The position numbers and the translations under genes are program-made. Below are positions 1 through 13,636 of a stretch of 64,000 nucleotides of DNA, piece by piece (the first letter of the stretch is position 1; each line of letters opens with the position of its first letter). The DNA lies in contig CAVOXA010000015.1 in assembly GCA_963700285.1 (NCBI GenBank), positions 64,001-128,000 on the forward strand, read 5' to 3'. The notes beneath the pieces are model-generated. The model ran no database searches and was not told the DNA's origin. It saw only the letters and a program-made list of their open reading frames with translations. The stretch comes from an uncultured Chloroflexia bacterium (GTDB lineage: Bacteria; Chloroflexota; Anaerolineae; JAAYZQ01).

Positions 1-832
1 AGCCCGCCACGGCAGAGGAGCTGGCGCAGATCGCAGCCGCTGCTGGCCGCCGACTGGCTGGCCGGCGAGGGGCTGGAGGGCCAGGTGGTGGGCTATGCCA
101 TCGGAGAACCTGGTCCCGCGCCACCTGGACCGCGTGCGCGAGGCGCCGCGAGGAGCAGATCGACAAGACCCTGGCCGCCGTGCACGAGCGCCTGACCAAA
201 GAGATCAACTACTGGGACCGCCAGGCCGACCGATGCTGCGCGAGCAGGAGAAGGCCGGCAAGGCCAACGCCGCGCTCAACGCGCCCGGGCCCAGCAGCGC
301 GCCGACGAACTGGCCGCCCGCCTGGAGCGGCGCACCCGGGAGCTGGACCTGGAGCGGCAGATCTCGGCCACACCGCCGGTGGTGATCGGCGGAGCCGTCG
401 TGATCCCGATCGGGCTGCTGCTGGGTGAGCGCACGCCGCCGGAGCTGATCGACACGGCGCATCACCGAGGCCATCGCCATGCAGGCCGTGATGCAGGCCG
501 AGACCGACCTGGGCAACCACCCCCGCGATGTGAGCAAGGACAACCTGGGCTACGACATCGAGAGCCTCGACCCGCGGACCGGCCGGCTGCGCTTCATCGA
601 GGTCAAGGGCCGGCGCGCTGGGGCCGAGACGGTGACCGTCACCCGCAACGAGATCCTGACCGGTATCAACAGCCCGGAGCAGTACATCCTGGCCATCGTC
701 GAGGTGGAAGACGGACAAGCCCAAGAGCCGCGCTACGTGCAGCAACCTTTCGGCAAGGAACCGGATTTCGGGGTGACCAGTGTGAACTATGAGCTGGGCG
801 AGCTGCTGGCGCGGAGCACGGTGGCGACGTGA
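1..832 (+). CDS. C-terminal part of SNF2-family helicase with DUF3883 (NOV_C) nuclease-like domain; 5' end lies outside the window; frameshifted
   Basis: Fragments [11 protein letters not shown] and [11 protein letters not shown], then [25 protein letters not shown] (DUF3883 pattern). Lies upstream of DUF1156 and DUF499 genes. Confidence 0.8.
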
Positions 833-842
833 TTTCCTACCC

Positions 843-922
843 CGTCATCGCGAGGAGCGTCAGCGACGAAGCGATCCCCAGTTGCGCAATTGGAGACCAC
901 TTCGCTGGCACTCGCGATGACG
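843..922. repeat. Palindromic CGTC-type REP-like element, copy 1
   Basis: Perfect 12-bp terminal inverted repeat CGTCATCGCGAG...CTCGCGATGACG, with internal GAGCGTCAGCGACGAAGCGATCCCC shared with the copies at 4627 and 5146. Confidence 0.85.
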
Positions 923-959
923 ACTTTGCCATAGTGCTGAGCACCCCTACTTGATCCGC

Positions 960-988
960 TGGACAAGGCTCTAAAACTATAGTACAAT
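960..988 (+). promoter_or_regulatory. Putative sigma70 promoter of the toxin-antitoxin pair
   Basis: TGGACA-17 bp-TACAAT. Confidence 0.5.
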
Positions 989-1042
989 GCATGGTAGAAT
1001 ATGTATTACAGTTCATAGCGCATCTTTGTAAGCGAGGTGACC

Positions 1043-1324
1043 ATGCAGAAGATCATTGGCGTGACCGAACTACAGCGCCGCTTCCGCTCTATTTTCGACG
1101 AGGTGGCCAAGGAGCGCGTCCCCTACGTCCTGACCCGGGGCAGCCGGCCCGAAGCAGCGCTCATCCCCTACGACGAGTACTTGCGCTTCGAGGCACTGAG
1201 GGAGCAGGACCTGTTGGCCCGTTTTGACCAATTGGTGGCCCGGATGGCGGAACAAAGCGCGGCTATCAGCGAGGAAGAGGTGGCCGCCGACGTGGCCGCC
1301 GCCCGGGCTGAACTGGCGAACTGA
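1043..1324 (+). CDS. Type II antitoxin, Phd/YefM family
   Basis: IGVTELQRRFRSIFDEV...YVLTRGSRPEAALI; RBS GAGGTG; TGATG overlap with the toxin gene. Confidence 0.85.
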   Translation: MQKIIGVTELQRRFRSIFDEVAKERVPYVLTRGSRPEAALIPYDEYLRFEALREQDLLARFDQLVARMAEQSAAISEEEVAADVAAARAELAN

Positions 1325-1749
1325 TGCGGGCCGTCGTCGACACCAACGTCCTGGTGCGGTCCGTCATCCGGCCTCAGGGCACGGTGGGCCCGGTGCTGCT
1401 GCGCCTCCGCCATGGCGAGTACACCCTGCTCTATGCCCGCTCGCTCCTGGAAGAACTGATCGACGTCCTCAACCGGCCGCGTATTCGCCAAAAGTACGGC
1501 CTGTCCGGCCAGGATATCCAGACCATCCTCGGCCTTATACTCCTGCGCGGGGAGGAGGTCACACCAGTGGAGTGCATCACGGCTTGCCGTGACCCCAAGG
1601 ACGACAAGTTCCTGGAAGTGGCCGTGGCCGGCCGGGCCGACGCCATCGTCAGTGGAGACCAGGATCTGCTGGTGCTGCATCCCTATGAAGGCATCCCCAT
1701 CATCCCACCGCGCCTTTTCCTGCGGATGCTGGATCAGCAGGAGCAGTGA
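1324..1749 (+). CDS. PIN-domain toxin (VapC-like, PIN_3)
   Basis: VVDTNVLV...[12 protein letters not shown]...IVSGDQDLL. Confidence 0.9.
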
Positions 1750-1768
1750 TACAACAAAGGAAAACTGC

Positions 1769-4600
1769 ATGACCTACCGCAAAAAACTGATCGAAGTCGC
1801 CCTGCCCCTGGAAGCCATCAACGAGGCCAGCGCCCGCGAGAAATCCATCCGCCACGGCCACCCCAGCACGCTGCACCTGTGGTGGGCGCGCCGGCCCCTG
1901 GCCGCCTGCCGCGCCGTGATCTTCACCTCGCTGGTGGACGACCCCGACGACCCCGACGCCCCGCCCGAGTTCGTCGAGGCCTGCCGCAAGCTGCCGCGGG
2001 GCAAGAACGCCGCCGAGAACGACACGCCGCGCCAGCGCCTGTTCGACTTCATCGAGACGCCTGGTCCAGTGGGAGAGCACCACCGACGAGCAGGTGCTGG
2101 AGACCGCCCGCGAGCTGATCCGGCTGGCGACGGACGGCAACCCGCCGCCGCTGCTGGACCCCTTTGCCGGGGGCGGCAGCATCCCGCTGGAGGCGCAGCG
2201 CCTGGGGCTGGAGGCCCACGCCAGCGACCTGAACCCGGTGGCGGTGATGATCAACAAGGCGCTGATCGAGATCCCGCCCAAGTTTGCCGAACATGCCGCC
2301 GGTGAACCCCCGCGACCGGGAGAAGATGGGCAGCGGCACGCGGCTGGAAGGGCGCGGCAGGCCTGGCCGCCGACGTGCGCTACTACGGCGAGTGGATGCG
2401 CGACCGCGCCTGGGAGCGCATTGGGCACTCTGTACCCGAGACTGCAACGGCGAGACGGTGATCGCCTGGCTGTGGGCGCGCACGGTGAAGTGCCCCAACC
2501 CGGCCTGCGGCGCGCAGATGCCGCTGGTGCAGCTCCTTTGACTGAGCAAGAAGAAAGGGCAGACGGGCGTGGGTGGAACCGCATGATCGACCAGACCGCC
2601 AAGACCGTGCGTTTACGTGGTCAAGACAGGGCAAGGGCAAAGCGCCCAGAAGGCACCCAAAGTGGGCCGTGGTGCGAAGTTCCGCTGTCTGGTGTGCGGC
2701 GACCGGTGCCCTATGACCACATCGCGAGACGAGAGGCGAATAGCTGGAGCGCATGGGAGCGCCAGTTGATGGCGATTGTGACCGAGGGCAGCAAGTCGGA
2801 CGCAGCTACTACGCAGCCGACACCCGAACACGAGCAGATTGCCGCAAGCGCAATACCAGCATGGCACCCGGACCAAGCTGGCCAAGACGCCTGCGGATTT
2901 CGTGTCCAGATGTATGGCATGACCAGACATCGCTGACCTCTTCACCCCACGCCAGCTCGTCGCCCTGACCACCTTCAGCGATCTGGTGGCCGAGGCCCGC
3001 GAGCAAATCCACGCCGACGCCGTTGCAGCCGGCCTGCCCGATGACGACGTTCCCTTGCGCGAGGGCGGCGCCGGCGCCCGGGCCTACGCCGAGGCAGTGA
3101 GTGTGTATCTTGGCGTTTGCTGTGGATCAGCAGTGCAGACTACTGGTCAATGCTCTGGCCAGTTGGGGCAACGAGATTCATCGTGCAAGCACTTTTGCAC
3201 GACAGGCACTGCCAATGATTTGGGATTATGCTGAGGCAAATCCATTTAGCTGATTCGACGGGGAACTGGCTTGGCAGCCATCGACTGGATTGCAAGAGCG
3301 CTTGAGATGTCTGCATGCCACGGTCGACGGGATATGCAGTATCAAGCGTGATGCCACGCAACTCGAGTTCTGACAGGCAGTTCGTTATATCAACCGATCC
3401 ACCGTACTACGACAATATCGGCTATGCGGATCTATCTGACTTCTTCTATGTTTGGCTGCGTCGAAGTCTGCAGGATGTCTATCCAGACATCTTCAGCACT
3501 TGCTGGTTCCAAAAGAACCGGAACTGATTGCCTCTCCGTATCGCTTCGGCGGCGACAGAGACGCAGCAAATGAGCATTTCGAGACAGGGCTTGACGAAGC
3601 TTTTCGCAGATATGCGCAGATCATGCTCAGCCGAGACTATCCCTTGACGGTCTACTATGCATTCAAGCAGTCCGAAGATCGATACGCTGAAGGAAGGACA
3701 CGTGCAGCAGTACTGGCTGGGAAACGATGCTGAAGGGCTTAATTCGAGCCGGGTTTTCAATCATTGGTACTGGCCAATGCGCACCGAGAGACTCGGGCGC
3801 ATCATGGAGCATTGGCACAAATGCTCTCGCCTCCTCCATTGTCCTGGTCTGCCGCCCGCGCCCTGACGACGCGCCGATGACCTCCCGCCGCGAGTTCGTC
3901 AACGCCCTGCGCCGCGAACTGCCCGCTGCCCTGCGCGAGATGCAGTCGGGCAACATCGCCCCGGTCGACCTGGCCCAGGCCACCATCGGCCCCGGCATGG
4001 CCGTCTACAGCCGCTACAGCAAGGTGCTGGAGCCCAACGGCGACCGGCTCACCGTGCGCACCGCCCTGCAGCTCATCAACCACGAGCTGGACGCCTACCT
4101 GGCCGAGCAGGAGGGCGACATCGACGCGGACTCGCGCTTTGCCGTGGCCTGGTTCGAGCAGTTCGGCTTCCAGCGAAGGCCCCTTCGGCCAGGCCGACGT
4201 GCTGGCCCGGGCCAAGAACACCAGCGTCGACGGCCTGGCCCACGCCGGCGTGCTGCGACTCGGGGGCGGGCAAGGTGCAGCTTCTACCGCTGGTCGGAGC
4301 TGGACCCCGGCTGGGACCCAGCCACGGACAGGCGCCTCACCGTCTGGGAGGCCGTCCACCACCTGATCGAGCGGCTCAACGTCCACGGCGAGGAGGGCGC
4401 GGCCATGCTGCTGGCCAAGATGCCCTCCGACCTGGCGGCCGAGGCGCGGCAGCTCGCCTACCGGCTCTACAGCATCTGCGAGCGCAAGGGCTGGGCCGAG
4501 CACGCCCGGGACTACAACGCGCTGGTCATCTCCTGGGGCGCCAGCCAGGAGCAGGCGCGGGAGTTCAAGGAGCAGTACCAGCAGGGGAGGCTGTCTCTAA
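1769..4600 (+). CDS. DUF1156 adenine-specific DNA methyltransferase; multiple frameshifts, end approximate
   Basis: [10 protein letters not shown]...[14 protein letters not shown]; motif [16 protein letters not shown]; motif [27 protein letters not shown]; C-terminal [17 protein letters not shown]. Confidence 0.85.
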
Positions 4601-4775
4601 CGTCATTGCGAGCGGAGGCTTCCAGACGTCATTGCGAGGAGCGTCAGCGACGAAGCAATCCCCAACTACTCCAGTGGAGACTGCTTCGGCCCCAAAGCGG
4701 GCCTCGCAGTGACAGGATCGATGGGGACCCAGGACATGCTCGGGACAGGCTGTCACTGCGTTCCTCGCGATGACA
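4601..4775. repeat. Cluster of CGTC-type palindromic repeats: half copy at 4601, full copy 4627-4713, contracted copy 4751-4775
   Basis: CGTCATTGCGAG at 4601 and 4627; CTCGCAGTGAC at 4703; TGTCACTGCG-TTC-CTCGCGATGACA at 4751. Confidence 0.8.
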
Positions 4776-4792
4776 GGCGTGAGAGGGGGCTG

Positions 4793-5080
4793 GTGACCAA
4801 GCAGTATTTTGTGTACATCATGACCAACAAGCACAACCGGGTGCTGTATACCGGCGTGACCAATGATCTCAGGAGACGGGCATACGAGCATCGGACCGGG
4901 CGCGGGGGTGGGTTCACGAGCCGGTACAATGCGACGAAACTGGTGTACTACGAGGTCTGTGAGGATCCGCGATCTGCCATCGCCAGAGAGAAGCAGATCA
5001 AGGCGGGCTCCAGGCAGAAGAAGCTGGACCTGATCGAAGGGATGAATCCGGAGTGGGAAGATCTGTATCCCGGTCTGTAG
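4793..5080 (+). CDS. Small GIY-YIG nuclease (UPF0213-like)
   Basis: YFVYIMTN-VLYTGVTNDLRRRAYEH-FTSRY-AIAREKQIK-NPEWEDL; GTG start after GAGAGGGGG. Confidence 0.9.
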   Translation: MTKQYFVYIMTNKHNRVLYTGVTNDLRRRAYEHRTGRGGGFTSRYNATKLVYYEVCEDPRSAIAREKQIKAGSRQKKLDLIEGMNPEWEDLYPGL

Positions 5081-5145
5081 GGCAGGATCTCTTCGAGAAT
5101 CAGCAGCGGCAGTTCGCCCGAGCGAGCCTCGAAATCACAAGGCAC

Positions 5146-5227
5146 CTGTCACTGCGAGCGCTAGCGAAGCAGTCTCCAGCTACATAGTTGGGGATCGCTT
5201 CGTCGCTGGCGCTCCTCGCGATGACAG
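5146..5227. repeat. CGTC-type palindromic element, inverted relative to the 843 and 4627 copies
   Basis: Reverse complement reads CTGTCATCGCGAGGAGCGCCAGCGACGAAGCGATCCCC...GGAGACTGCTTCG...CTCGCAGTGACAG. Confidence 0.85.
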
Positions 5228-5243
5228 GCTGGGAGGGAGTTAG

Positions 5244-8200
5244 ATGGCACTCAGCAACAGAGAACGGGTCGGACGGATCCTGGAGGCACTGAAAGAGGGC
5301 CTGGGGCCTTTCATCATGCGCGAGTACCGCCAGCGCTATACCGCAAACGACTATACCAACGAGATGGACATGGTCCTAAGCACCGGAGCCTACCCGGGCC
5401 TTCCCGATGATGCCTGGTCCGACGATGCCGCCCTGCTGGCGGCGCTGGACACCCACGCCTGCCTGCACCTGATGTGGCGGCGCTGGAACGAGGTCTTCCA
5501 GGACAAGCTGGGCCACGTGGGCCGCTCCTACGTCAGCGAGATGATCGAGGCCCGCAACAACTGGGCGCACCAGAGCGCCTTCTCCAACGACGAGGCCTAT
5601 CGCGTCGCCGACACCGCCGCCCGCCTGCTCAAGATGGTCAGCGCCGCGCCGGAAGCGGCCCGCGTCGACGAGATCGGCCGCGAGCTGCTGCGCCAGCGCT
5701 TCGAGGCCGAGGCCGAGAAGGCAAGAAAGGAGACCGTCGTCCAGGCCGAGACGCAGATCACCACGCCTGGCCGGGCTCAAGCCCTGGCGCGAGGTGGTCC
5801 AGCCCCATCCCGACGTGGCCAGCGGGCGCTACATCCAGGCCGAGTTCGCCGCCGACCTCTCCCAGGTGCTGGCCGGCACCGCCGAGGCCGGAGTACCAGG
5901 ACCCGCTCGAGTTCTTCCGCCGCACCTACCTCACCGAGGGCCTGCTGGCCCTGCTGGTGACCGGCGTCAAGCGCCTCACCGCCCAGGGCGGCGACCCGGT
6001 GGTCCAGCTCCAGACCGCCTTTGGCGGCGGCAAGACCCACAGCATGCTGGCCCTCTACCACCTCTGCGGCGGCAAGATCCGGCTGGGCGATTTCCCCGGC
6101 GGCGAGCGGATGGCCGCAGAGATCGGCGACGTCGACCTGCCGGAGGCCAACATCGCCGTGCTGGTCGGCACGGCCCTCGACCCGTCCCGGCCGCGCGAGT
6201 ACCCCGACGCCACCGTCCACACCCTGTGGGGCGAGACTGGCCTACCAGCTCGGCGGGCGCGAAGGGCTACCAGATGGTCGAGCAGGCCGACCTCAAGGGC
6301 GTCAGCCCCGGCTCCAACACCCTGCAGCGAGCTGCTCTTCCAATTCGGCCCGTGCCTGATCATCATCGACGAACTGGTGGCCTACGCCCGCAACCTGTAC
6401 AGCGTGGAGCGGCTGCCGGCCGGCTCCTTCGAGTCGATCATGACCTTCATGCAGTCGCTCACCGAGGCGGTCAAGCGCTCGGACGAGTCGATGCTGCTCG
6501 ATCTCGCTGCCCGAGTCGGACATCGAGATCGGCGGCGAGGCGGGGCGCGCCGTGCTGGAGACCCTCTCCCACGTCGTCGGACGCATCGAGTCGGTCTGGA
6601 AGCCGGTCACCGCCACCGAGAGCTTTGAGATCGTGCGCCGCCGCCTGTTCGCCACCGAGGTCGACTATGCCGCCCGCGACGCCGTCGTCAACGCCTTTGG
6701 CGACATGTACCGCAACGCCGCCGGCGAGTTCCCCTCCGGCGTGGCCGAGCGGGACTATCTGGACCGGATGCAGCGCCGCCTATCCCATCCACCCCGAGCT
6801 GTTCGACCGGCTCTACCAGGACTGGTCCACCCTGGAGCGCTTCCAGCGCACCCGCGGCGTGCTGCGGCTGATGGCCGCCGTCATCCACCAGCTCTGGACG
6901 CGGGGCGATCCAGTCGCTGCTGATCATGCCCGGCACGCTGCCGCTGGACACCACGCCCGGTGCGCAACGAGCTGCTGCGCTACCTGCCCGATACCTGGGC
7001 TGCCGTCTTCGACACCGACATCGACGGGCCAGAATCGCGCCCCTTTGCCATCGACGGCCACGTGCCCGGCCCTGGGCAAGCTACAGCGCGGCCCGGCGCG
7101 TGGCGCGCACCATCTTCGTCGGCAGCGCGCCCTCGGTGGCCGAGCAGCGCGTCCGCGGCCTGGAAGAGATCCGCATCCGCCTGGGCTGCGCCCAACCCGG
7201 CGAGCCGGCCGCCGTCTTTGGCGATGCCCTGCGCCGCATGAGCGGCCAGCTCACCTACCTCTACACCGACGGCAGCCGCTACTGGTACGACACCCGGCCC
7301 ACCGTCAACAAGCTGGCCCGCGACCGCGCCCAGAGCTATCGCCAAGAAGAGGTGGACGCCGAGATCGTGGACCGGCTGCGAGCTGTGCCCAAGAACCGGG
7401 ACTTTGCCGCCTTTCACGTTGCCCCGCCCGAAACCTCCGACGTGGTGGACGAGGATCGGGCCAGGGTCGTCGTCCTGCATCCCGAATTCACCCACAAGCG
7501 CACGACCGGCGAGACAGAGGCGGTGCAAGCAGGCCCGGCGCTTCCTGGAGAGCCGCGGGAACGCGCAGCGCCTCTACAAGAACATGCTGATCTTCATCGC
7601 CGCCGACGAGAACGACGCCGAGGCCCTGCAACTCGGCTGTCCGCGATTTTCTGGCCTGGCGGTCCATCCACGATGAGCGCGACGAACTGAACCTGGACGC
7701 CCAGCAGCGCCGGCAGGTGACGACCAGCCTGGAAAAGGCCGATGAGACGGTGGATCTGCGGCTCCGGGCGGCCTATAGCTGGCTGCTGGTGCCGGTCCAG
7801 CCGGAGCCGCTGGGACCCATCGAGTTCCAGGCCAGCCGCATCAGCGGCGACGACAACTTTTACGACCGGGCCGCCCGCCGGCTGCGCAACGACGGCCTGC
7901 TGATCTACGAGTGGTCGCCCGACATCCTGCGCATGGAGCTGGACCGCTACATCTGGAGCGAGGAGCGCGGCTGGGAGGTCGGGCTGAAGCAGCTCTGGGA
8001 ATACCTGGCCCAGTACTGCTACCTGCCGCGCCTGTTCGACCAGCGAGGTGCTGGTCAACGCCGTCAGGGACGGCGTGGGCCGCCTGGACGCGCCCTTCGC
8101 CTACGCCACGGGCAAGAGCGAAGAGGGCTACCACACCGGGGTCGTACTCCGCAGCCTGGGTACCGTCTACTTTGACGACCGGAGCCTGCTGGTCCATCCG

Positions 8201-8553
8201 GATCACGTGGTCGAGCCACCCGAGGTCAAGCCTGTCGTCGGAGCCTGGCCAGGGTACGGACGGTCCCTGGCCCAGGCAGAACGCCACCAGTGCACGAACC
8301 CGAGCCCCGAGAGAAAGTGATGACCCGCTACTACGGCCGCGTCGCCATCGACCCCCAGCGCGCGAACCAGGACATGGGTCTCATCGTCGAGGAGGTGGTC
8401 GAGCGCCTTACCAGCCAGCTTGGCTGCGAGGTCGAGATCAGCGTCGAGATCGAGGCCAAGCGGCCGGACGGCTTTGAGGAGAGCACCATCCGCACCGTCA
8501 GCGAGAACAGCCGCACGCTCAAGTTTGAGGGTTTTGGCTTTGAGGAGCGGTAG
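5244..8553 (+). CDS. DUF499 AAA+ ATPase with N-terminal Swt1-like HEPN domain; frameshifted
   Basis: HEPN Rx4H (ARNNWAHQ); EFAADL; [11 protein letters not shown]; Walker [13 protein letters not shown]; Walker [11 protein letters not shown]; [12 protein letters not shown]; C-terminal [12 protein letters not shown]. Confidence 0.85.
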
Positions 8554-8625
8554 ACCAAGCTCCCCTACGCGCCAGCTATCAGCAAAGATCGTGCATTCCT
8601 CCAGTCAGCAAGGAGCGAGTGGTTC

Positions 8626-9681
8626 GTGATAAAGCAGTCTGTATGCCCTGAATGCGAAGCATTGAATCGATGGCAGAACCTGTACTGCACGCGTTGCGGT
8701 GCGTCCATGCACGGCGCGGTCATTGTCCAGGAAGCCTCCAAATCCACAGAGGAGGATACTCCCCGGATGCGCGTACCGGGCTGGTTAAAATGGCTGCTTC
8801 TGGGGCTGCTATTGCCAGTTGTGTTTATCGCAGGCTCCCGCTTGTTAGATCAGGGGGTACTCACCGGTTCCTCGGAACCACCCCGTCCCATGGCACTTGA
8901 TCCCACCCATTTACTCTGTGGCATCTCCATCGTTTTGGTCTTTGCCATCCCCCTACTTCTGATTGTCCTGCTTCTGCCTCCTTTGCTGCACAGAGATCGA
9001 CTCAATCAGCGCGCCCAGCGCGACTACCGCGAAGCAAGGGGTACTTACCACCTGAACCAGCTCCGGCAGTCGCTCACATCTCTGGACGCCAAGTTGGAAA
9101 AGCTTGGGCAGCAAGAATCGCAGTTGAATGCAAAAATCCACTCATTGCATCAGCAGCGTCAGCAAGAGCTTCTGCGCGCCCTGAATCGCCACGTTGCACA
9201 AGCTTACCTGACCGACATTGACGGGATCGGGCCCAAACTGCGCGACCGTATCCTGCAGGAGTGCTTTTCTGGAACGCTCGACAGTCTGTTGGTGGCCTAC
9301 TGTGTACAAGGCGTTGGAGAAAAGCGAGCGCTAGATATCCGCGTCTGGGTCCAAAAGTGGAAGCAGCAACTGCCAGAGCTTGCCATGACAGACTTCCCAG
9401 GCAAAAGGAGAATTGTGGCCAGCTACGAACAGAAGCTGCAGGCTAGCAGGGGTACACTGGAGTCTGTCCAGAAAAAGTCCCGCTCGCTGCAACGCCTCAG
9501 GAAACTGGCTGTGGCCGAGCAAGAGCGCCTGGCAGGTGTGACAGTGTCACATTTCAGGCAAGCCTACAACCGGAACTCGGATAGCTCCGAAGTCATTGAT
9601 CACTACTTGCAAGGCGTCTTTGCAGAGTGGGCGCCGATGCCCGCATGGTTCAAGCAACTGATTGGGGAGTTTGGAGGCTGA
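8626..9681 (+). CDS. Hypothetical membrane protein: zinc ribbon, 2 TM helices, coiled coil, tandem helix-hairpin-helix
   Basis: CPEC..YCTRCG; two hydrophobic stretches; DIDGIGPKLRDRI and VQGVGEKRALDI. Confidence 0.7.
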   Translation: MIKQSVCPECEALNRWQNLYCTRCGASMHGAVIVQEASKSTEEDTPRMRVPGWLKWLLLGLLLPVVFIAGSRLLDQGVLTGSSEPPRPMALDPTHLLCGISIVLVFAIPLLLIVLLLPPLLHRDRLNQRAQRDYREARGTYHLNQLRQSLTSLDAKLEKLGQQESQLNAKIHSLHQQRQQELLRALNRHVAQAYLTDIDGIGPKLRDRILQECFSGTLDSLLVAYCVQGVGEKRALDIRVWVQKWKQQLPELAMTDFPGKRRIVASYEQKLQASRGTLESVQKKSRSLQRLRKLAVAEQERLAGVTVSHFRQAYNRNSDSSEVIDHYLQGVFAEWAPMPAWFKQLIGEFGG

Positions 9682-9682
9682 T

Positions 9683-12181
9683 ATGCTGAGCGGTTTGCGC
9701 AACCGTTTCCGCAGGGTGCGGGTACAGGATCTACTGCTCGAATTCACCCTTGACCTCGACAAAGAAGACAAACATGTCGCAAAGGTCTACTCGATGGTAG
9801 ACGGACAACGGGAGCAGGTCACCGATATCCGTGGCTTGTGGAGCTACGGGTTCACGTTGGAGCATCCGACCGGACAGTACTCCATCAGCAGGGAGACCTG
9901 TGAGACGCTACTTGCCATGCGCTCCCTGAATCCCAACATCCAGCCGGATGGTAGCATGGTCTTTGATGTCTGTCCACCCGTGCTCCGCTACCTGAGGACT
10001 CGGGCCGCCATCGATGAAGCACTGACATCCAAAGAGTTAGAGATCGCAGAGAAACCACTGGAGCCAGCCTCTTTGGTAGACTTTGAACCCGGGAAGGGCC
10101 TCAAGGTCCGGTCCGGATTCCGCCAAGACGGAAAAGGTGACTTCATCGCCCGGGACAAGCTCGAGCTCACACCCGACAAAGGTTATGTACGAACTGGCAA
10201 ATGCTTCTATCCTGTGGACCAGAACCTCAATCCCAAGATCAAGGAATGGATAGACAGAGTAGTCACGAATGTACCGCTCGATCGTATCCCAGAGTTCTTC
10301 AAGAGGGATCTCGTCCTTCTCAAGACTCAAATGAGTGCGGTGCTGACAGAGAGAGCGAACAGCATCCAAATCATCGATTCCCAGTTCTCACCGCGCGTGC
10401 GTGTCGAGTCGGACGAGCCAGGCTGGCTGGACTTTCAGGTGGACTATGTTGTGGGTGACTACGAACTGCCTGCTGACCTGATTCGCAGGGCAAAGCAAGA
10501 ATACGTCCAGCCTGATGACCACACATGGGTCAGCTTGGACAGCCAAACCATTGCAGATACCGAGAAGCGCCTCCGCGAGTTGGGGGCACAACCGATCGCC
10601 GGAGGATTTCGTGTGCCGGTAACCCAGTTTGCATCCCTTGAGGAGTTTATTGAACAGATTGGGGGAATTCGCGAGGTCTCCGCAGACTATGCCCGTTTCC
10701 TCGAGCAAATCACGGACTTTCAGGCCGACGAGCACTTCCGGCTGCCAGCTGAGGTCGAGATCCGTTTGGTCTCCAGTGGCATTAACCTCCGCCCCTACCA
10801 GCGAGCCGGCATTCACTGGCTGAACTGGCTGGTCACGCATCATCTCCATGGTGTTCTTGCCGACGATATGGGCCTTGGAAAGACCATCCAGACCATCGCC
10901 ACTATGGCTCAGCGCTATCGGGACGAAGATGCTGCACAACATAGTCTTGTTGTCTGTCCCAAGTCGGTGGTGCACTTCTGGGCTCGCGAGATACAGCGCT
11001 GCATTCCCAACGCGCTGGTCTACGAATATGTGGGCCCGTCGCGGAGCCGTGACCTGTGGAAGGCTGCCAAACCTATCATCTTCATCAGTACCTATGAGAC
11101 TGTGGCCCGTGACATAGGGCTCATCCAGCCAGTCCCTTTCTTTTTCTTGGTCTTGGATGAAGCCACCAAAATCAAGAATCCGAATACGCAGCGGACGAAA
11201 GCTATCAAGCATCTAAATTCAGTACACAGGGTTGCCCTAAGTGGCACACCCATCGAGAATCGCCCCGCAGAGCTGTGGTCACTCTTTGATTTCCTCATGA
11301 AGGGGCATCTAGGAACCTATGGCAAGTTCATTCGCCTGTTTGAGAACCCCATCACGTCTGGTGACGATCGTGCGGCCCAACGACTCTCAAGGCGCATCCG
11401 GCCCTTTGTCCTCCGGCGACTGAAAGGACAGGTTGCAAAAGACCTCCCGGAAAAGATCGAGATGGACATCTGGTGCGAACTGACAAACGAGCAGAAATCC
11501 CTCTATGGCCAGATTCAGGATACCTACGCCGACCCCGTCCGCCAAGCGTTGGACGGAGGAGAGCAGGTGAGCTATGCTACCAGCATCCTTCCGGTGTTGA
11601 CCAAGCTGAAGCAGGTGTGTGACCATCCCGCTCTGATCACCGGGGAAGTGAACCCCGTCGATGGCCGATCGGAAAAGCTAGACAGGGTTGTCAGGAAGGT
11701 CGAAGAAGTGAAGGGGCAAGGCGAACACATTGTACTCTTTAGTCATTTTCTTGCCACCCTGGACCTTCTCGAGATCGCATTCAAGCAAAGAGGTATCACC
11801 TACATCCGCCTCGATGGATCGACTGGGAATCGGCAGCAGCTCATCGATCATTTCAACAGGTCTCGGGTCGATGCTGCGCTCTGCAGCATTCAGGCGGTTG
11901 GTCACGGCATCAGTTTAACGGCAGCCAACCACGTCATCCATATTGACCGGTGGTGGAACCCTGCCGTCGAAGACCAGGCCACAGACCGCGTTCACCGCAT
12001 CGGTCAAGATAGGACAGTCTACGTGTACAGGGTACTCGTCGCTGGAACACTGGAGGAAAAGATAGCGCTCCTCTTGGAAAAGAAGCGAAACATCTCGGAT
12101 AGGATTGTAGGCGCTGCGGTCGGACAGGAAATGCGCTGGACCAGGGACGAGCTATTGGAACTCCTGAAGCCCCTGGAATAG
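9683..12181 (+). CDS. SNF2-family helicase/ATPase with uncharacterised N-terminal region
   Basis: LRPYQ, LADDMGLGKT, DEATKIKN, LSGTPIEN, LKQVCDHP, WWNPAVEDQATDRVHRIGQ; RBS GGAGG. Confidence 0.9.
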   Translation: MLSGLRNRFRRVRVQDLLLEFTLDLDKEDKHVAKVYSMVDGQREQVTDIRGLWSYGFTLEHPTGQYSISRETCETLLAMRSLNPNIQPDGSMVFDVCPPVLRYLRTRAAIDEALTSKELEIAEKPLEPASLVDFEPGKGLKVRSGFRQDGKGDFIARDKLELTPDKGYVRTGKCFYPVDQNLNPKIKEWIDRVVTNVPLDRIPEFFKRDLVLLKTQMSAVLTERANSIQIIDSQFSPRVRVESDEPGWLDFQVDYVVGDYELPADLIRRAKQEYVQPDDHTWVSLDSQTIADTEKRLRELGAQPIAGGFRVPVTQFASLEEFIEQIGGIREVSADYARFLEQITDFQADEHFRLPAEVEIRLVSSGINLRPYQRAGIHWLNWLVTHHLHGVLADDMGLGKTIQTIATMAQRYRDEDAAQHSLVVCPKSVVHFWAREIQRCIPNALVYEYVGPSRSRDLWKAAKPIIFISTYETVARDIGLIQPVPFFFLVLDEATKIKNPNTQRTKAIKHLNSVHRVALSGTPIENRPAELWSLFDFLMKGHLGTYGKFIRLFENPITSGDDRAAQRLSRRIRPFVLRRLKGQVAKDLPEKIEMDIWCELTNEQKSLYGQIQDTYADPVRQALDGGEQVSYATSILPVLTKLKQVCDHPALITGEVNPVDGRSEKLDRVVRKVEEVKGQGEHIVLFSHFLATLDLLEIAFKQRGITYIRLDGSTGNRQQLIDHFNRSRVDAALCSIQAVGHGISLTAANHVIHIDRWWNPAVEDQATDRVHRIGQDRTVYVYRVLVAGTLEEKIALLLEKKRNISDRIVGAAVGQEMRWTRDELLELLKPLE

Positions 12182-12382: not shown

Positions 12383-12430
12383 TTGCCAACCTCCCCCAAC
12401 TATGCTACAATGCAATTAGAACATTAGTTC
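12383..12430 (+). promoter_or_regulatory. Sigma70 promoter followed by a LexA (Cheo-type) SOS box
   Basis: TTGCCA-17-TACAAT with extended TG; GAAC-ATTA-GTTC at 12419-12430. Confidence 0.75.
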
Positions 12431-12457: not shown

Positions 12458-13636
12458 ATGCCCCTCGAGCCCTACAGACACATACCCTATCCCTCTCTCC
12501 ACGACCTCTCCGGCAAGTTCCCACCCGTCGACTGGCTCTGGCCCTCCTGGATCCCCCGCGGCATGCTCACCCTCTTCGGCGCCTCCCCCGGCGTGGGCAA
12601 ATCCTTCGTCGCCCTCGACCTCGCCCGCCGCATCATCCACGGCCAGCCCTTTCCCGATGGCGCTCCCGCGCCCAGCCCCGGCGCCGATGTGCTCATCGTC
12701 GATGCCGAGGGCGCACCCGCTCTCCTCAACCAGCGCGCCCAGGCCTGGGGCATCGACAGCAGCCGTCTCTACCTCATGTTGTCGCCCGATCGTACGGGCT
12801 TCATTGACCTCGTCCAGCCAGGACAAATTCGCCTGCTCACCCTCATGATCAACGAAATCCGTCCCGCTCTCATAGTCGTCGACTCCCTGGCCGCCGCCAC
12901 CAGCCGCGGCGAGACCAGCCTCCAGAGCGCTCGCGACATCCTCGGCGGCCTCTCCACGCTCGCCAGGGTGTTCAACACGGCCATCCTCGTCATCCACCAC
13001 CTGCGCAAGCGTACCCGCTCAGGAGCCGCCGCCCCATCTCCCCAGGTCTCCATCGACGACCTCCGCGGCTCCTCCCACCTAAGCGCCGCCGCCCGCTCCG
13101 TCCTAGCCCTAAGTCTATCCCGAGCCCCTGAGGGACCTGCCGAACGCTCTCCCTCTTTCCCAATCTCCCCCTCTCCCCATCACGAGTCCCCCTCTCTCCC
13201 CATCTCCCCCTCTCCCTCTCGCGGGTCCCCCCCTCTCCCCCTCTCTCCATCTCCCCCTCAGCCTGTCACTCGCCGCCTCGAAGTAGTAAAAACCAACCTC
13301 TGCCGCCACCCGCCTCCCCTCGCCCTGCGCTTCGAAGGTGAAGGCGTAGCCGTTCCCACGCTACACTATTCAGAATGGGTAGAACCGCCTCCTCCGCCCA
13401 CCCAGCTCGACCTTTGCGCCCGGTGGCTCATCGACTACCTCGCCGACGCCGATTCCCCCGTCAAGCCCGCCGACGTCGTCCGCGCCGCCGTGGAACAGGG
13501 CTTCTCCCGTCCAACCCTCTACCGCGCCCGCCAGGCCCTTGCCGGCAAGGTCATAGACCTCGGCAACAGCCCTCACGACCCCAACAAGCGCTGGACCCTC
13601 GTCCCTCCGTCTCCAGATCAGGATGCCCATAACTGA
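12458..13636 (+). CDS. AAA_25 (RecA/RepA-helicase-like) ATPase with C-terminal winged-helix-like region
   Basis: VDWLWPSWIPRGMLTLFGASPGVGKS, IVVDSL, LVIHHLRK, LRGSS, LEVVKTNL, GFSRPTLYRAR; RBS AAGGAG. Confidence 0.8.
   Translation: MPLEPYRHIPYPSLHDLSGKFPPVDWLWPSWIPRGMLTLFGASPGVGKSFVALDLARRIIHGQPFPDGAPAPSPGADVLIVDAEGAPALLNQRAQAWGIDSSRLYLMLSPDRTGFIDLVQPGQIRLLTLMINEIRPALIVVDSLAAATSRGETSLQSARDILGGLSTLARVFNTAILVIHHLRKRTRSGAAAPSPQVSIDDLRGSSHLSAAARSVLALSLSRAPEGPAERSPSFPISPSPHHESPSLPISPSPSRGSPPLPLSPSPPQPVTRRLEVVKTNLCRHPPPLALRFEGEGVAVPTLHYSEWVEPPPPPTQLDLCARWLIDYLADADSPVKPADVVRAAVEQGFSRPTLYRARQALAGKVIDLGNSPHDPNKRWTLVPPSPDQDAHN
13148..13264 (+). repeat. Three imperfect in-frame 39-bp pyrimidine-rich tandem repeats
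   Basis: Encode SPSFPISPSPHHE / SPSLPISPSPSRG / SPPLPLSPSPPQP. Confidence 0.75.

Follow-up and report, generated by a model that had tools for sequence, protein, structure and literature searches.

What is the function of a gene for a putative membrane stalk protein that is followed, after a single base, by a gene for a SNF2-family ATPase? This question is raised by positions 8626 to 12181 of a 64,000-nucleotide stretch of DNA from an uncultured Chloroflexia bacterium (contig CAVOXA010000015.1, positions 64,001 to 128,000), hereafter called the window, for which a preliminary description had proposed a new two-gene defence system. We conclude from the current study that the pair is a real, conserved and unnamed membrane-docked SNF2 module. 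The reading favoured here, at a probability of about 0.45, is that the docked motor acts on foreign DNA at entry and is likely directed against phages or plasmids. Counting in the abortive and accessory variants considered below, a defensive role of some kind is probable. The two genes, and the ribosome-binding site of the first, are as follows.

8610..8615, + strand: ribosome-binding site AAGGAG, 10 nucleotides 5' of the GTG of gene 1 (sequence)
8626..9681, + strand: gene 1, membrane anchor/stalk protein of 351 amino acids (aa), GTG start (open reading frame, ORF; family of 255 representatives at E ≤ 1e-30)
9683..12181, + strand: gene 2, SNF2-family ATPase of SSO1653/ZorD type, 832 aa, ATG start (ORF and family matches)

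A conserved gene pair

A single base separates the TGA of gene 1 (end at 9681) from the ATG of gene 2, which has its own ribosome-binding site, GGAGG, at 9673-9677. The coordinates, ribosome-binding sites and one-base gap of the two tightly coupled ORFs were borne out. Both are confirmed as genuine, unbroken genes that together make up a conserved module.

The two genes are also conserved together elsewhere. The N-terminus of the SNF2 protein was scanned for in one genome per species (185,579 species) with exact peptide patterns, so the result is not a census. It was found at 30 loci, with gene 1 directly upstream in 22 of them (21, and one at a contig edge); the eight loci without gene 1 upstream were seven from Bathyarchaeia and one planctomycete protein. 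A search starting from gene 1 gave 15 genomes beyond the window and three seed genomes, the fifteenth ending at a contig edge, and an SNF2 gene lay directly downstream in 14/14 evaluable genomes. After deduplication there were 30 distinct pair loci, gene 1 always being first, in genomes labelled Chloroflexota, Bipolaricaulota, Thermotogota, Alphaproteobacteria, Bathyarchaeota and uncultured archaeon. Pairing is far beyond chance. The pair is the sole conserved unit, and no regulated genes travel along with it. The mirror correlation between gene 1 and SNF2 was 0.74 over 16 pairs, which fits joint inheritance without showing co-evolution. In metagenomes a single locus was found, truncated ahead of gene 1.

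Relatives of the same class suggest that the window's genome belongs to Anaerolineae. Prevalence was low, with the pair in 6/400 genomes of the class, 0/400 of a draw from the phylum, and 7/151, 4/301 and 2/35 in three other genome sets, which include the seed genomes. A genome of the same genus (90% complete) gave no match, the insertion sites are unrelated to one another, and in 13 of 18 loci the guanine plus cytosine (GC) content of the pair was more than 2 points below that of its flanks. For these reasons the pair is regarded as a mobile module, patchily spread across bacteria and archaea. The lower-GC block described for the window stood when compared with the 4-kb flanks (55.3% vs 66.4%), but the dip is modest, about 5 points under the genome bulk, because the large contigs of this genome have about 60–63% GC and positions 20–64 kb of the window 53–63%. 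No convincing mobile-element ends or target repeats were found flanking the pair. Weak negatives were obtained for plasmids (no match to the window's gene 1, one query), for viral contigs (no gene 1 match, one peptide pattern) and for PHROGs (no match for the window's proteins).

Gene 1

A profile search gave 255 representatives of gene 1 at E ≤ 1e-30, of which the best 150 were listed, and 154 sequences were analysed. No family model in Pfam, PADLOC 2.0.0 (2023) or NCBIfam (June 2026) matched gene 1 above its cut-off, and in the Atlas it fell only into unnamed clusters (<0.9). The family shares a core of about 255 residues, and its common plan is a membrane anchor, a coiled-coil hairpin of fixed length and a tip with two helix-hairpin-helix motifs, (HhH)2. 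The window copy has the following features.

8644..8697, + strand: C4 zinc ribbon CxxC..CxxC (aa 7-24), only in the window copy (Pfam DZR, E 0.016, below cut-off)
8779..8847, + strand: first transmembrane (TM) helix (aa 52-74), which is no general feature of the family (model and hydrophobicity)
8911..8979, + strand: TM helix ahead of the core (aa 96-118), with basic residues after it (family topology survey)
9013..9051, + strand: base motif AxxDYxxARGTxH (aa 130-142), which contributes to the predicted SNF2 dock (conservation and complex model)
9052..9216, + strand: outgoing coiled-coil helix (AlphaFold2 model)
9217..9360, + strand: tandem HhH tip (GIG 200-202, GVG 229-231), locally XPF-like (Pfam HHH, E 0.006, below cut-off; fold match)
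9403..9534, + strand: returning coiled-coil helix (AlphaFold2 model)
9604..9651, + strand: C-terminal motif YxxGxFxEWxxxPxWF, centre of the predicted SNF2 dock (conservation and complex model)

The ribbon, two TM helices, coils and two HhH motifs that had been described are all present in the window copy, but the ribbon and the layout with two TM helices are quirks of this copy. As a feature of the system the ribbon was ruled out, since it is present in one of the 154 family members; similar ribbons begin two further ORFs of the same genome. A TM helix lies directly before the core in 99 of the 154 relatives, further upstream in about 15 (our own reading of the list) and after the core in 10, and four sequences are truncated. 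Lysine and arginine are more numerous after the TM helix than before it in 93/101 relatives, and because basic residues thus follow the helix the core is probably cytoplasmic.

R138 and G139 are found in 100% of the 154 relatives, and G330, W335, P339 and W341 in 99–100%; outside the HhH motifs, RGTxH (138-142) and GxFxEWxxxPxW (330-341) show the highest conservation in gene 1. Both GhG motifs of the HhH tip are present in 141/154. The spacing is 62 residues from R138 to G200 in 145 of the 154 relatives and 69 residues from W241 to F310 in 150, although the choice of best-scoring relatives favours sequences with few indels. The AlphaFold2 model (pLDDT 87, core >90) is all helical, with two long helices flanking the two-HhH unit. 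Fold searches gave only generic antiparallel coiled coils (best Z 8.6, root-mean-square deviation (rmsd) 2.9, 126 aligned) and, locally, the HhH domain of XPF (2bhn; probability 0.97, rmsd 2.4 over 57 columns, E 0.76). Sequence matches to coiled coils in the PDB, e.g. amphiphysin (E 0.001), were taken as compositional, and an NCBIfam TIGR-Tas match (21 bits vs a cut-off of 100) as a coiled-coil match.

Most gene 1 members have almost nothing outside the membrane. Among 50 longer members scanned, SH3b matches were found in eight and TPR matches in four (one weak), and these domains lie across the TM helix from the core. In one set of variants (L045:128-1444, L051:8718-9992, L054:8702-9988, P0012, P0070 and P0099) the TM helix follows the core and the tail is extended, SH3b being confirmed in the three P-numbered proteins; here the anchor has swapped ends and the core would stay cytoplasmic. 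In another set (P0094, P0107, P0140, P0192, P0074 and P0153) a long N-terminal region lies ahead of the TM helix, with TPR repeats in several and Thr/Pro-rich linkers in others. A weak search for gene 1 fused to a longer protein such as SNF2 found none. A distant coil/HhH relative of gene 1 (L038:7110-8150; hhalign 96.5%) lies close to a contig end and may be a TerY-P kinase tail or a stand-alone form.

Gene 2

The SNF2 protein can be divided into four parts.

9683..9718, + strand: cationic amphipathic N-terminal helix, likely a membrane-targeting segment (hydrophobic moment)
9722..10045, + strand: first N-terminal domain (aa 14-121), with Y55, G56 and Y103, the predicted docking face for gene 1 (structure and complex model)
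10061..10717, + strand: second and third N-terminal alpha/beta domains, with the invariant motif PEFFxRD (structure model and alignment)
10781..12112, + strand: SNF2 ATPase of two lobes, with Walker A (GLGKT, 10871-10885) and Walker B (DEAT, 11156-11167) (Pfam and alignment)

Gene 2 matched the Pfam families SNF2-rel_dom (E 1e-64) and Helicase_C (E 4e-18), and its Walker A, Walker B and motif VI are invariant across 42 relatives. The description of a full SNF2 motor without a nuclease held, but the N-terminus is not wholly unassigned as had been thought, since aa 200-350 matched SNF2_assoc (PF08455) above cut-off. The N-terminal 345 residues form a subfamily of their own (48 matches), are predicted to fold as three alpha/beta units and had no solved relative in a sequence search; the Atlas likewise gave nothing for this region. 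An N-terminal helix in the top tenth of hydrophobic moment was found in 34/36 scored relatives, a count for which 11 of 47 were skipped and which is inflated by the choice of the best window. The closest solved motor is SSO1653 by sequence (E 4e-135) and apo ZorD by Foldseek (E 9e-37, top match), and against curated NCBIfam models all scores were far below cut-off.

Predicted docking and orphan SNF2s

Complex modelling, which the preliminary description had suggested, was carried out with SNF2 aa 1-365 and gene 1 aa 118-351, using our own alignments, so that the calibration is only rough. A direct interaction was predicted (ipSAE 0.63, compared with 0.01 for the best control; partner pLDDT 88), and the contacts agreed to at least 94% between runs. 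Of 157 solved complexes, 116 attain the mark of 0.63, as do 2 of 215 mismatched pairs. The predicted interface is formed by the base residues D133, R138, F310, E334 and W335 of gene 1 and by residues 54-56, 70-81 and 99-104 of SNF2. The model supports, rather than shows, binding of the first SNF2 domain to the base of gene 1.

A conservation check, independent of the model, agrees with this interface. Y55 and G56 are present in 20/20 paired SNF2s, archaeal ones included, as is an aromatic residue or His at position 103. The seven Bathyarchaeia orphans keep Y55 and Y103 in 0/7 and G56 in 2/7, with the neighbouring P98, L104 and R105 retained, and their agreement with the paired consensus is 0.35 of the paired level at the interface vs 0.65–0.73 elsewhere. 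In the planctomycete orphan Y55 and Y103 are kept and G56 is changed. No gene 1 was found in the five orphan genomes checked (completeness not given). All seven Bathyarchaeia orphans (L063 and L065-L070) carry an added N-terminal C4 zinc finger and six have the same upstream genes, and this clade is apparently a domesticated, partner-free form of the SNF2.

Genomic neighbourhood

In the window the pair abuts a DUF499 operon, as had been noted, with the TAG of the final DUF499/HmaC segment (8551-8553) lying 72 nucleotides 5' of gene 1.

5244..8553, + strand: neighbouring gene outside the pair, encoding HEPN-DUF499 (HmaC), from an Hma / type-1 BR operon and split by frameshifts into several pieces (PADLOC/Pfam and frame reading)

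The whole operon (479-8553) is of the Hma / type-1 BR kind, with PADLOC matches to HmaA (479-829), HmaB (E 2e-85) and the HmaC pieces. Embedded in it are a toxin-antitoxin pair (Phd/PIN) and a GIY-YIG gene. HmaB and HmaC are split into many frameshifted pieces, reflecting either decay or assembly error; the adjoining pair is intact. A sigma-70 consensus scan of the stretch from HmaC to gene 1 found neither a promoter nor a terminator, and no RNA run was listed among the sequencing runs for the window (all shares <0.1). Elsewhere in the window, an AAA_25 ATPase gene (12458-13636) has its own promoter-like site (12383-12411) and contains pyrimidine-rich 39-nucleotide repeats (13148-13272); a 78% identical copy of this gene lies at G000:C19:13809-14997.

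For the neighbour scan, 98 ORFs were used, mostly picked by eye from 155 candidates after many distant or plainly housekeeping ones had been dropped, together with 35 further ORFs. The control consisted of all 132 ORFs passing the same filter in 20 random 8-kb windows, ten of them from the window's genome. HmaC is the next gene in three loci (the window, L037 and the archaeal L128), type I restriction-modification (RM) genes are adjoining or one gene off in another three (L051, L060 and L061), and GmrSD is found in L064. An obligate tie of the pair to the DUF499 operon was ruled out, the two adjoining in 3/26 flank-scanned loci. Pair and neighbour are on the same strand in the window and L037 and divergent in L128 and L051. 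PADLOC matches to DprA (ShosA), Pol I, ABC transporters, an AAA ATPase (IetA models) and cysteine desulfurase were discarded as housekeeping false positives in both the test and control sets.

Two of these loci contain further genes. In L051 (12610-18285) a 1892-aa CHAT/EAD7/NTPase/TCAD9/SIR2-like protein is encoded directly downstream of the pair, with the type I RM genes upstream. In the archaeal island of L128, HmaC-HmaB-HmaA run divergently from the pair and are followed by genes for an exonuclease-like protein, DUF6884 (PDC-M57A) and a NucS-like protein (PDC-S11).

Proposed function and alternatives

In the mechanism favoured here, gene 1 would fold as an antiparallel coiled-coil hairpin of about 60 residues, a length of about 9 nm if each residue adds 1.5 A. 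(HhH)2 would form the tip of the hairpin, and the invariant residues would lie at its base, close to the membrane. SNF2 would dock on this base through its first domain, at the inner membrane, and its cationic amphipathic helix is predicted to give a second membrane contact. The HhH tip might catch double-stranded DNA near the membrane without sequence specificity and pass it to the motor; this hand-over could relieve an N-terminal autoinhibition of SNF2, as proposed for ZorD, after which the ATPase may translocate on, jam or cut the DNA. Self and non-self would be told by place, i.e. DNA crossing the envelope, and in some copies the outside SH3b or TPR domains would sense the envelope. Capture, activation and target are drawn by analogy with Zorya. 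The relatives, i.e. the TerY-linked kinase with its tail and ZorD, are defence proteins, which supports a defensive role. A fuller version, which we regard as tentative, is a two-protein 'minimal Zorya' in bacteria and archaea, with a fixed-length stalk derived from a kinase tail whose HhH catches entering DNA, a docked SNF2 that destroys or stalls this DNA without nuclease or rotary motor, and interchangeable SH3b/TPR domains that tune sensing.

Several findings weigh against the motor acting on foreign DNA. RM, Hma or GmrSD genes were found within 4 kb in 8/26 loci vs 2/20 controls (one-sided Fisher p 0.09), and strict defence neighbours in 7/25 once the window was left out (p 0.13); only when PADLOC PDC candidates were counted did p fall to 0.03–0.045 (10/26, p 0.03). 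Defence genes occupied 6/45 immediate-neighbour slots vs 4/132 control ORFs (p 0.018), a value weakened by relatedness among the loci, which are not independent. Roughly two in three pair copies lie among housekeeping genes. With related loci, many short flanks and a small control, the defence-neighbour signal is suggestive, not decisive. About 26 of the 154 gene 1 relatives have no predicted TM helix, and the HhH tip is weakly basic (median net charge +2). No appended nuclease domain was found in gene 2 by Pfam, and its match to housekeeping-type SNF2 models is as good as or better than that to ZorD (410 bits for SCO1167 and the E-value given above for SSO1653, vs 387 bits in PADLOC and E 3e-99 to 8qy7 for ZorD). 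The interface loss in Bathyarchaeia counts as one event because these orphans form one clade in a quick tree, and their existence shows that at a fixed locus the motor can function with no gene 1 present. The evidence for a defensive function is indirect, and the enrichment of defence neighbours is borderline.

Two alternatives are unlikely, to about the same degree. In the first, abortive infection, gene 1 would behave as an antitoxin does, keeping a toxic SNF2 on the membrane and releasing it upon envelope disturbance, so that host DNA or transcription is attacked. The same pairing, complex and defence neighbours fit this explanation, as does the order of the genes, with gene 1 always first. 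A stop or frameshift interrupts the SNF2 gene in 5/30 pair loci (L036, L054, L060, L061 and L126), as for a costly gene, but these breaks may be decay or errors in the metagenome assemblies. The strongly conserved HhH motifs and stalk length would not be needed by a mere inhibitor, orphan SNF2s persist without gene 1, and Zorya is reported in the accessible text of PMC11946911 to defend directly, without cell death.

In the second, the pair would be a helper in DNA repair, DNA uptake or chromosome tethering, the stalk holding host or transforming DNA at the membrane while SNF2 remodels it. This is consistent with the likeness of the HhH tip to the HhH domains of XPF, ComEA and UvrC (all E ≥ 0.067), with a motor closest to SSO1653/Rad54-like proteins, and with the position of L046/L052 near dprA and ruvC-like genes and of L126 beside radC; however, these repair-type neighbours represent two insertion sites of about 26. 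The HhH of ComEA faces outward, in contrast to the probably cytoplasmic HhH of gene 1. That the pair is rare and patchy, lies at unrelated lower-GC sites and has no match in the same-genus genome also argues against such a helper.

Slightly less likely still is an envelope-coupled regulator, in which gene 1 would be a single-pass receptor whose outside part is an SH3b, TPR or low-complexity domain and which governs an SNF2 remodeller acting at host promoters or RNA polymerase. A subset of gene 1 proteins has signal-peptide-like starts and an outside TPR, or a C-terminal TM helix and SH3b (TM helix after the core in 10/154), the homologous tail is that of a signalling kinase with two membrane passes, and the second-best NCBIfam match of gene 2 is a pilus-regulating Snf2 (355 bits, cut-off 1100). 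Such a receptor is at odds with the near absence of outside parts in most gene 1 members, and the regulation with the lack of regulated genes travelling with the pair.

That the pair serves Hma / type-1 BR or RM as an accessory arm and depends on their methylase or nuclease is improbable: HmaC adjoins in three loci, type I RM in three, and the pair has no nuclease of its own, but most loci are without Hma or RM within 4 kb, the orientation to the neighbour varies between loci, and none of HEC-01 to HEC-09 shares the composition in the accessible part of 10.1101/2024.01.29.577857.

The preferred reading, a docked motor acting on entering DNA, bears on two open questions, namely the way in which ZorD is activated in Zorya and whether DNA can be destroyed by a bare SNF2 ATPase itself. 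Here there are only two components, with a predicted interface and clear candidates for point mutation, and a natural control in a clade that has lost the partner and the docking residues. The reuse of a TerY-P kinase-type tail as a dock for a DNA motor would link two defence families. If not defensive, the pair would still be unusual among prokaryotes, as an SNF2 remodeller coupled to a receptor in the membrane.

Comparison with known systems

The view that the pair is not a named system was upheld, as no PADLOC 2.0 system model fits it and no PADLOC 2.0, Pfam or NCBIfam model names it. No description of the pair was found in a literature search that left most subscription papers outside; the supplement of PMC12839542 may list it as a BR auxiliary.

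By sequence, the closest motors are those of the SSO1653-type, SCO1167 and SWIM-associated bacterial SNF2s, which have the SNF2_assoc region in common with gene 2. The 410 bits against the SCO1167 family are far below its cut-off of 1200, however, gene 2 differs in its first domain and membrane partner, and no SWIM finger was detected by Pfam. Hma / type-1 BR also contains a Swi2/Snf2 helicase, according to the accessible text of PMC12839542. In HmaA/BR the helicase is of the RapA-like kind and carries TUDOR and REase (restriction endonuclease) domains, and gene 2, which matches HmaA weakly (50 bits), is not the HmaA of the window's Hma operon, which has its own upstream. The compositions of HEC-01 to HEC-09 differ from the pair, as far as the same part of 10.1101/2024.01.29.577857 describes them, and no HEC model was among the matches listed (best 25 of 41 for gene 2). 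Scores against DpdE (37 bits, cut-off 500) and DrmD (67 bits, cut-off 950) were low, and no conserved Dpd, DISARM or BREX partner genes were found.

ShdA of Shield resembles gene 1 in combining a TM helix and an extended coiled coil with a DNA-acting domain, often inside type I RM loci (accessible text of PMC11090510). Unlike gene 1, it has an RmuC-like nuclease and no SNF2 partner; no RmuC or nuclease match to gene 1 was found in Pfam, PADLOC or NCBIfam, the only PADLOC match being PbeC at E 0.095.

The proposed kinship of gene 1 with the coil/HhH tail that follows the TM helices in TerY-P kinases was supported, with the kinase domain itself absent. The coil-HhH2-coil of gene 1 aligns to the tail of a kinase downstream of terY (hhalign 97.5%, E 8e-12, 107 columns), which has two TM helices ahead of the tail; YegI of E. 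coli is two-pass, with both ends inside, in the accessible part of 10.1101/819920. The base motifs RGTxH and GxFxEWxxxPxW, which form the predicted SNF2 dock, are absent from the TerY-linked kinase. No TerY, PP2C or STK_OB match was found in the pair or the scanned neighbours, whereas the same models match true TerY-P loci.

In type I Zorya, as described in the accessible text of PMC11946911, a membrane anchor with a long cytoplasmic stalk likewise brings an SNF2 effector to the membrane. Zorya has four genes, for the ZorA/B membrane motor, the DNA binder ZorC and the SNF2 protein ZorD, compared with two in the pair, where DNA-binding-type HhH and anchor are in one chain of gene 1. Neither ZorA/ZorB (PADLOC), i.e. 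the rotary motor, nor ZorC was matched by gene 1 or the scanned neighbours, and the pair has no OmpA-type domain. Against the curated ZorD model NF041790 gene 2 scored 266 bits, which is below the cut-off of 1500 and places it outside that family. The N-terminal region is about 350 aa in gene 2 vs 502 in ZorD, and whole-length superposition gave an rmsd of 40 with Foldseek and of 25.9 with VIA-align (122-810, Z 26.5, 536 aligned). Both proteins end shortly after the ATPase, E. coli ZorD being matched over 575-1064 of its 1080 residues with 16 left after the core. According to the same part of PMC11946911, the Snf2 domain of ZorD degrades DNA once freed from its N-terminal domain, and because ZorD is reported to do so although it ends after the SNF2 core, the nuclease-less gene 2 could, by analogy, also degrade DNA. 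Being neither Hma nor HEC, without the three enzymes of TerY-P and outside the membership of Zorya, the pair is nonetheless like a cut-down Zorya.

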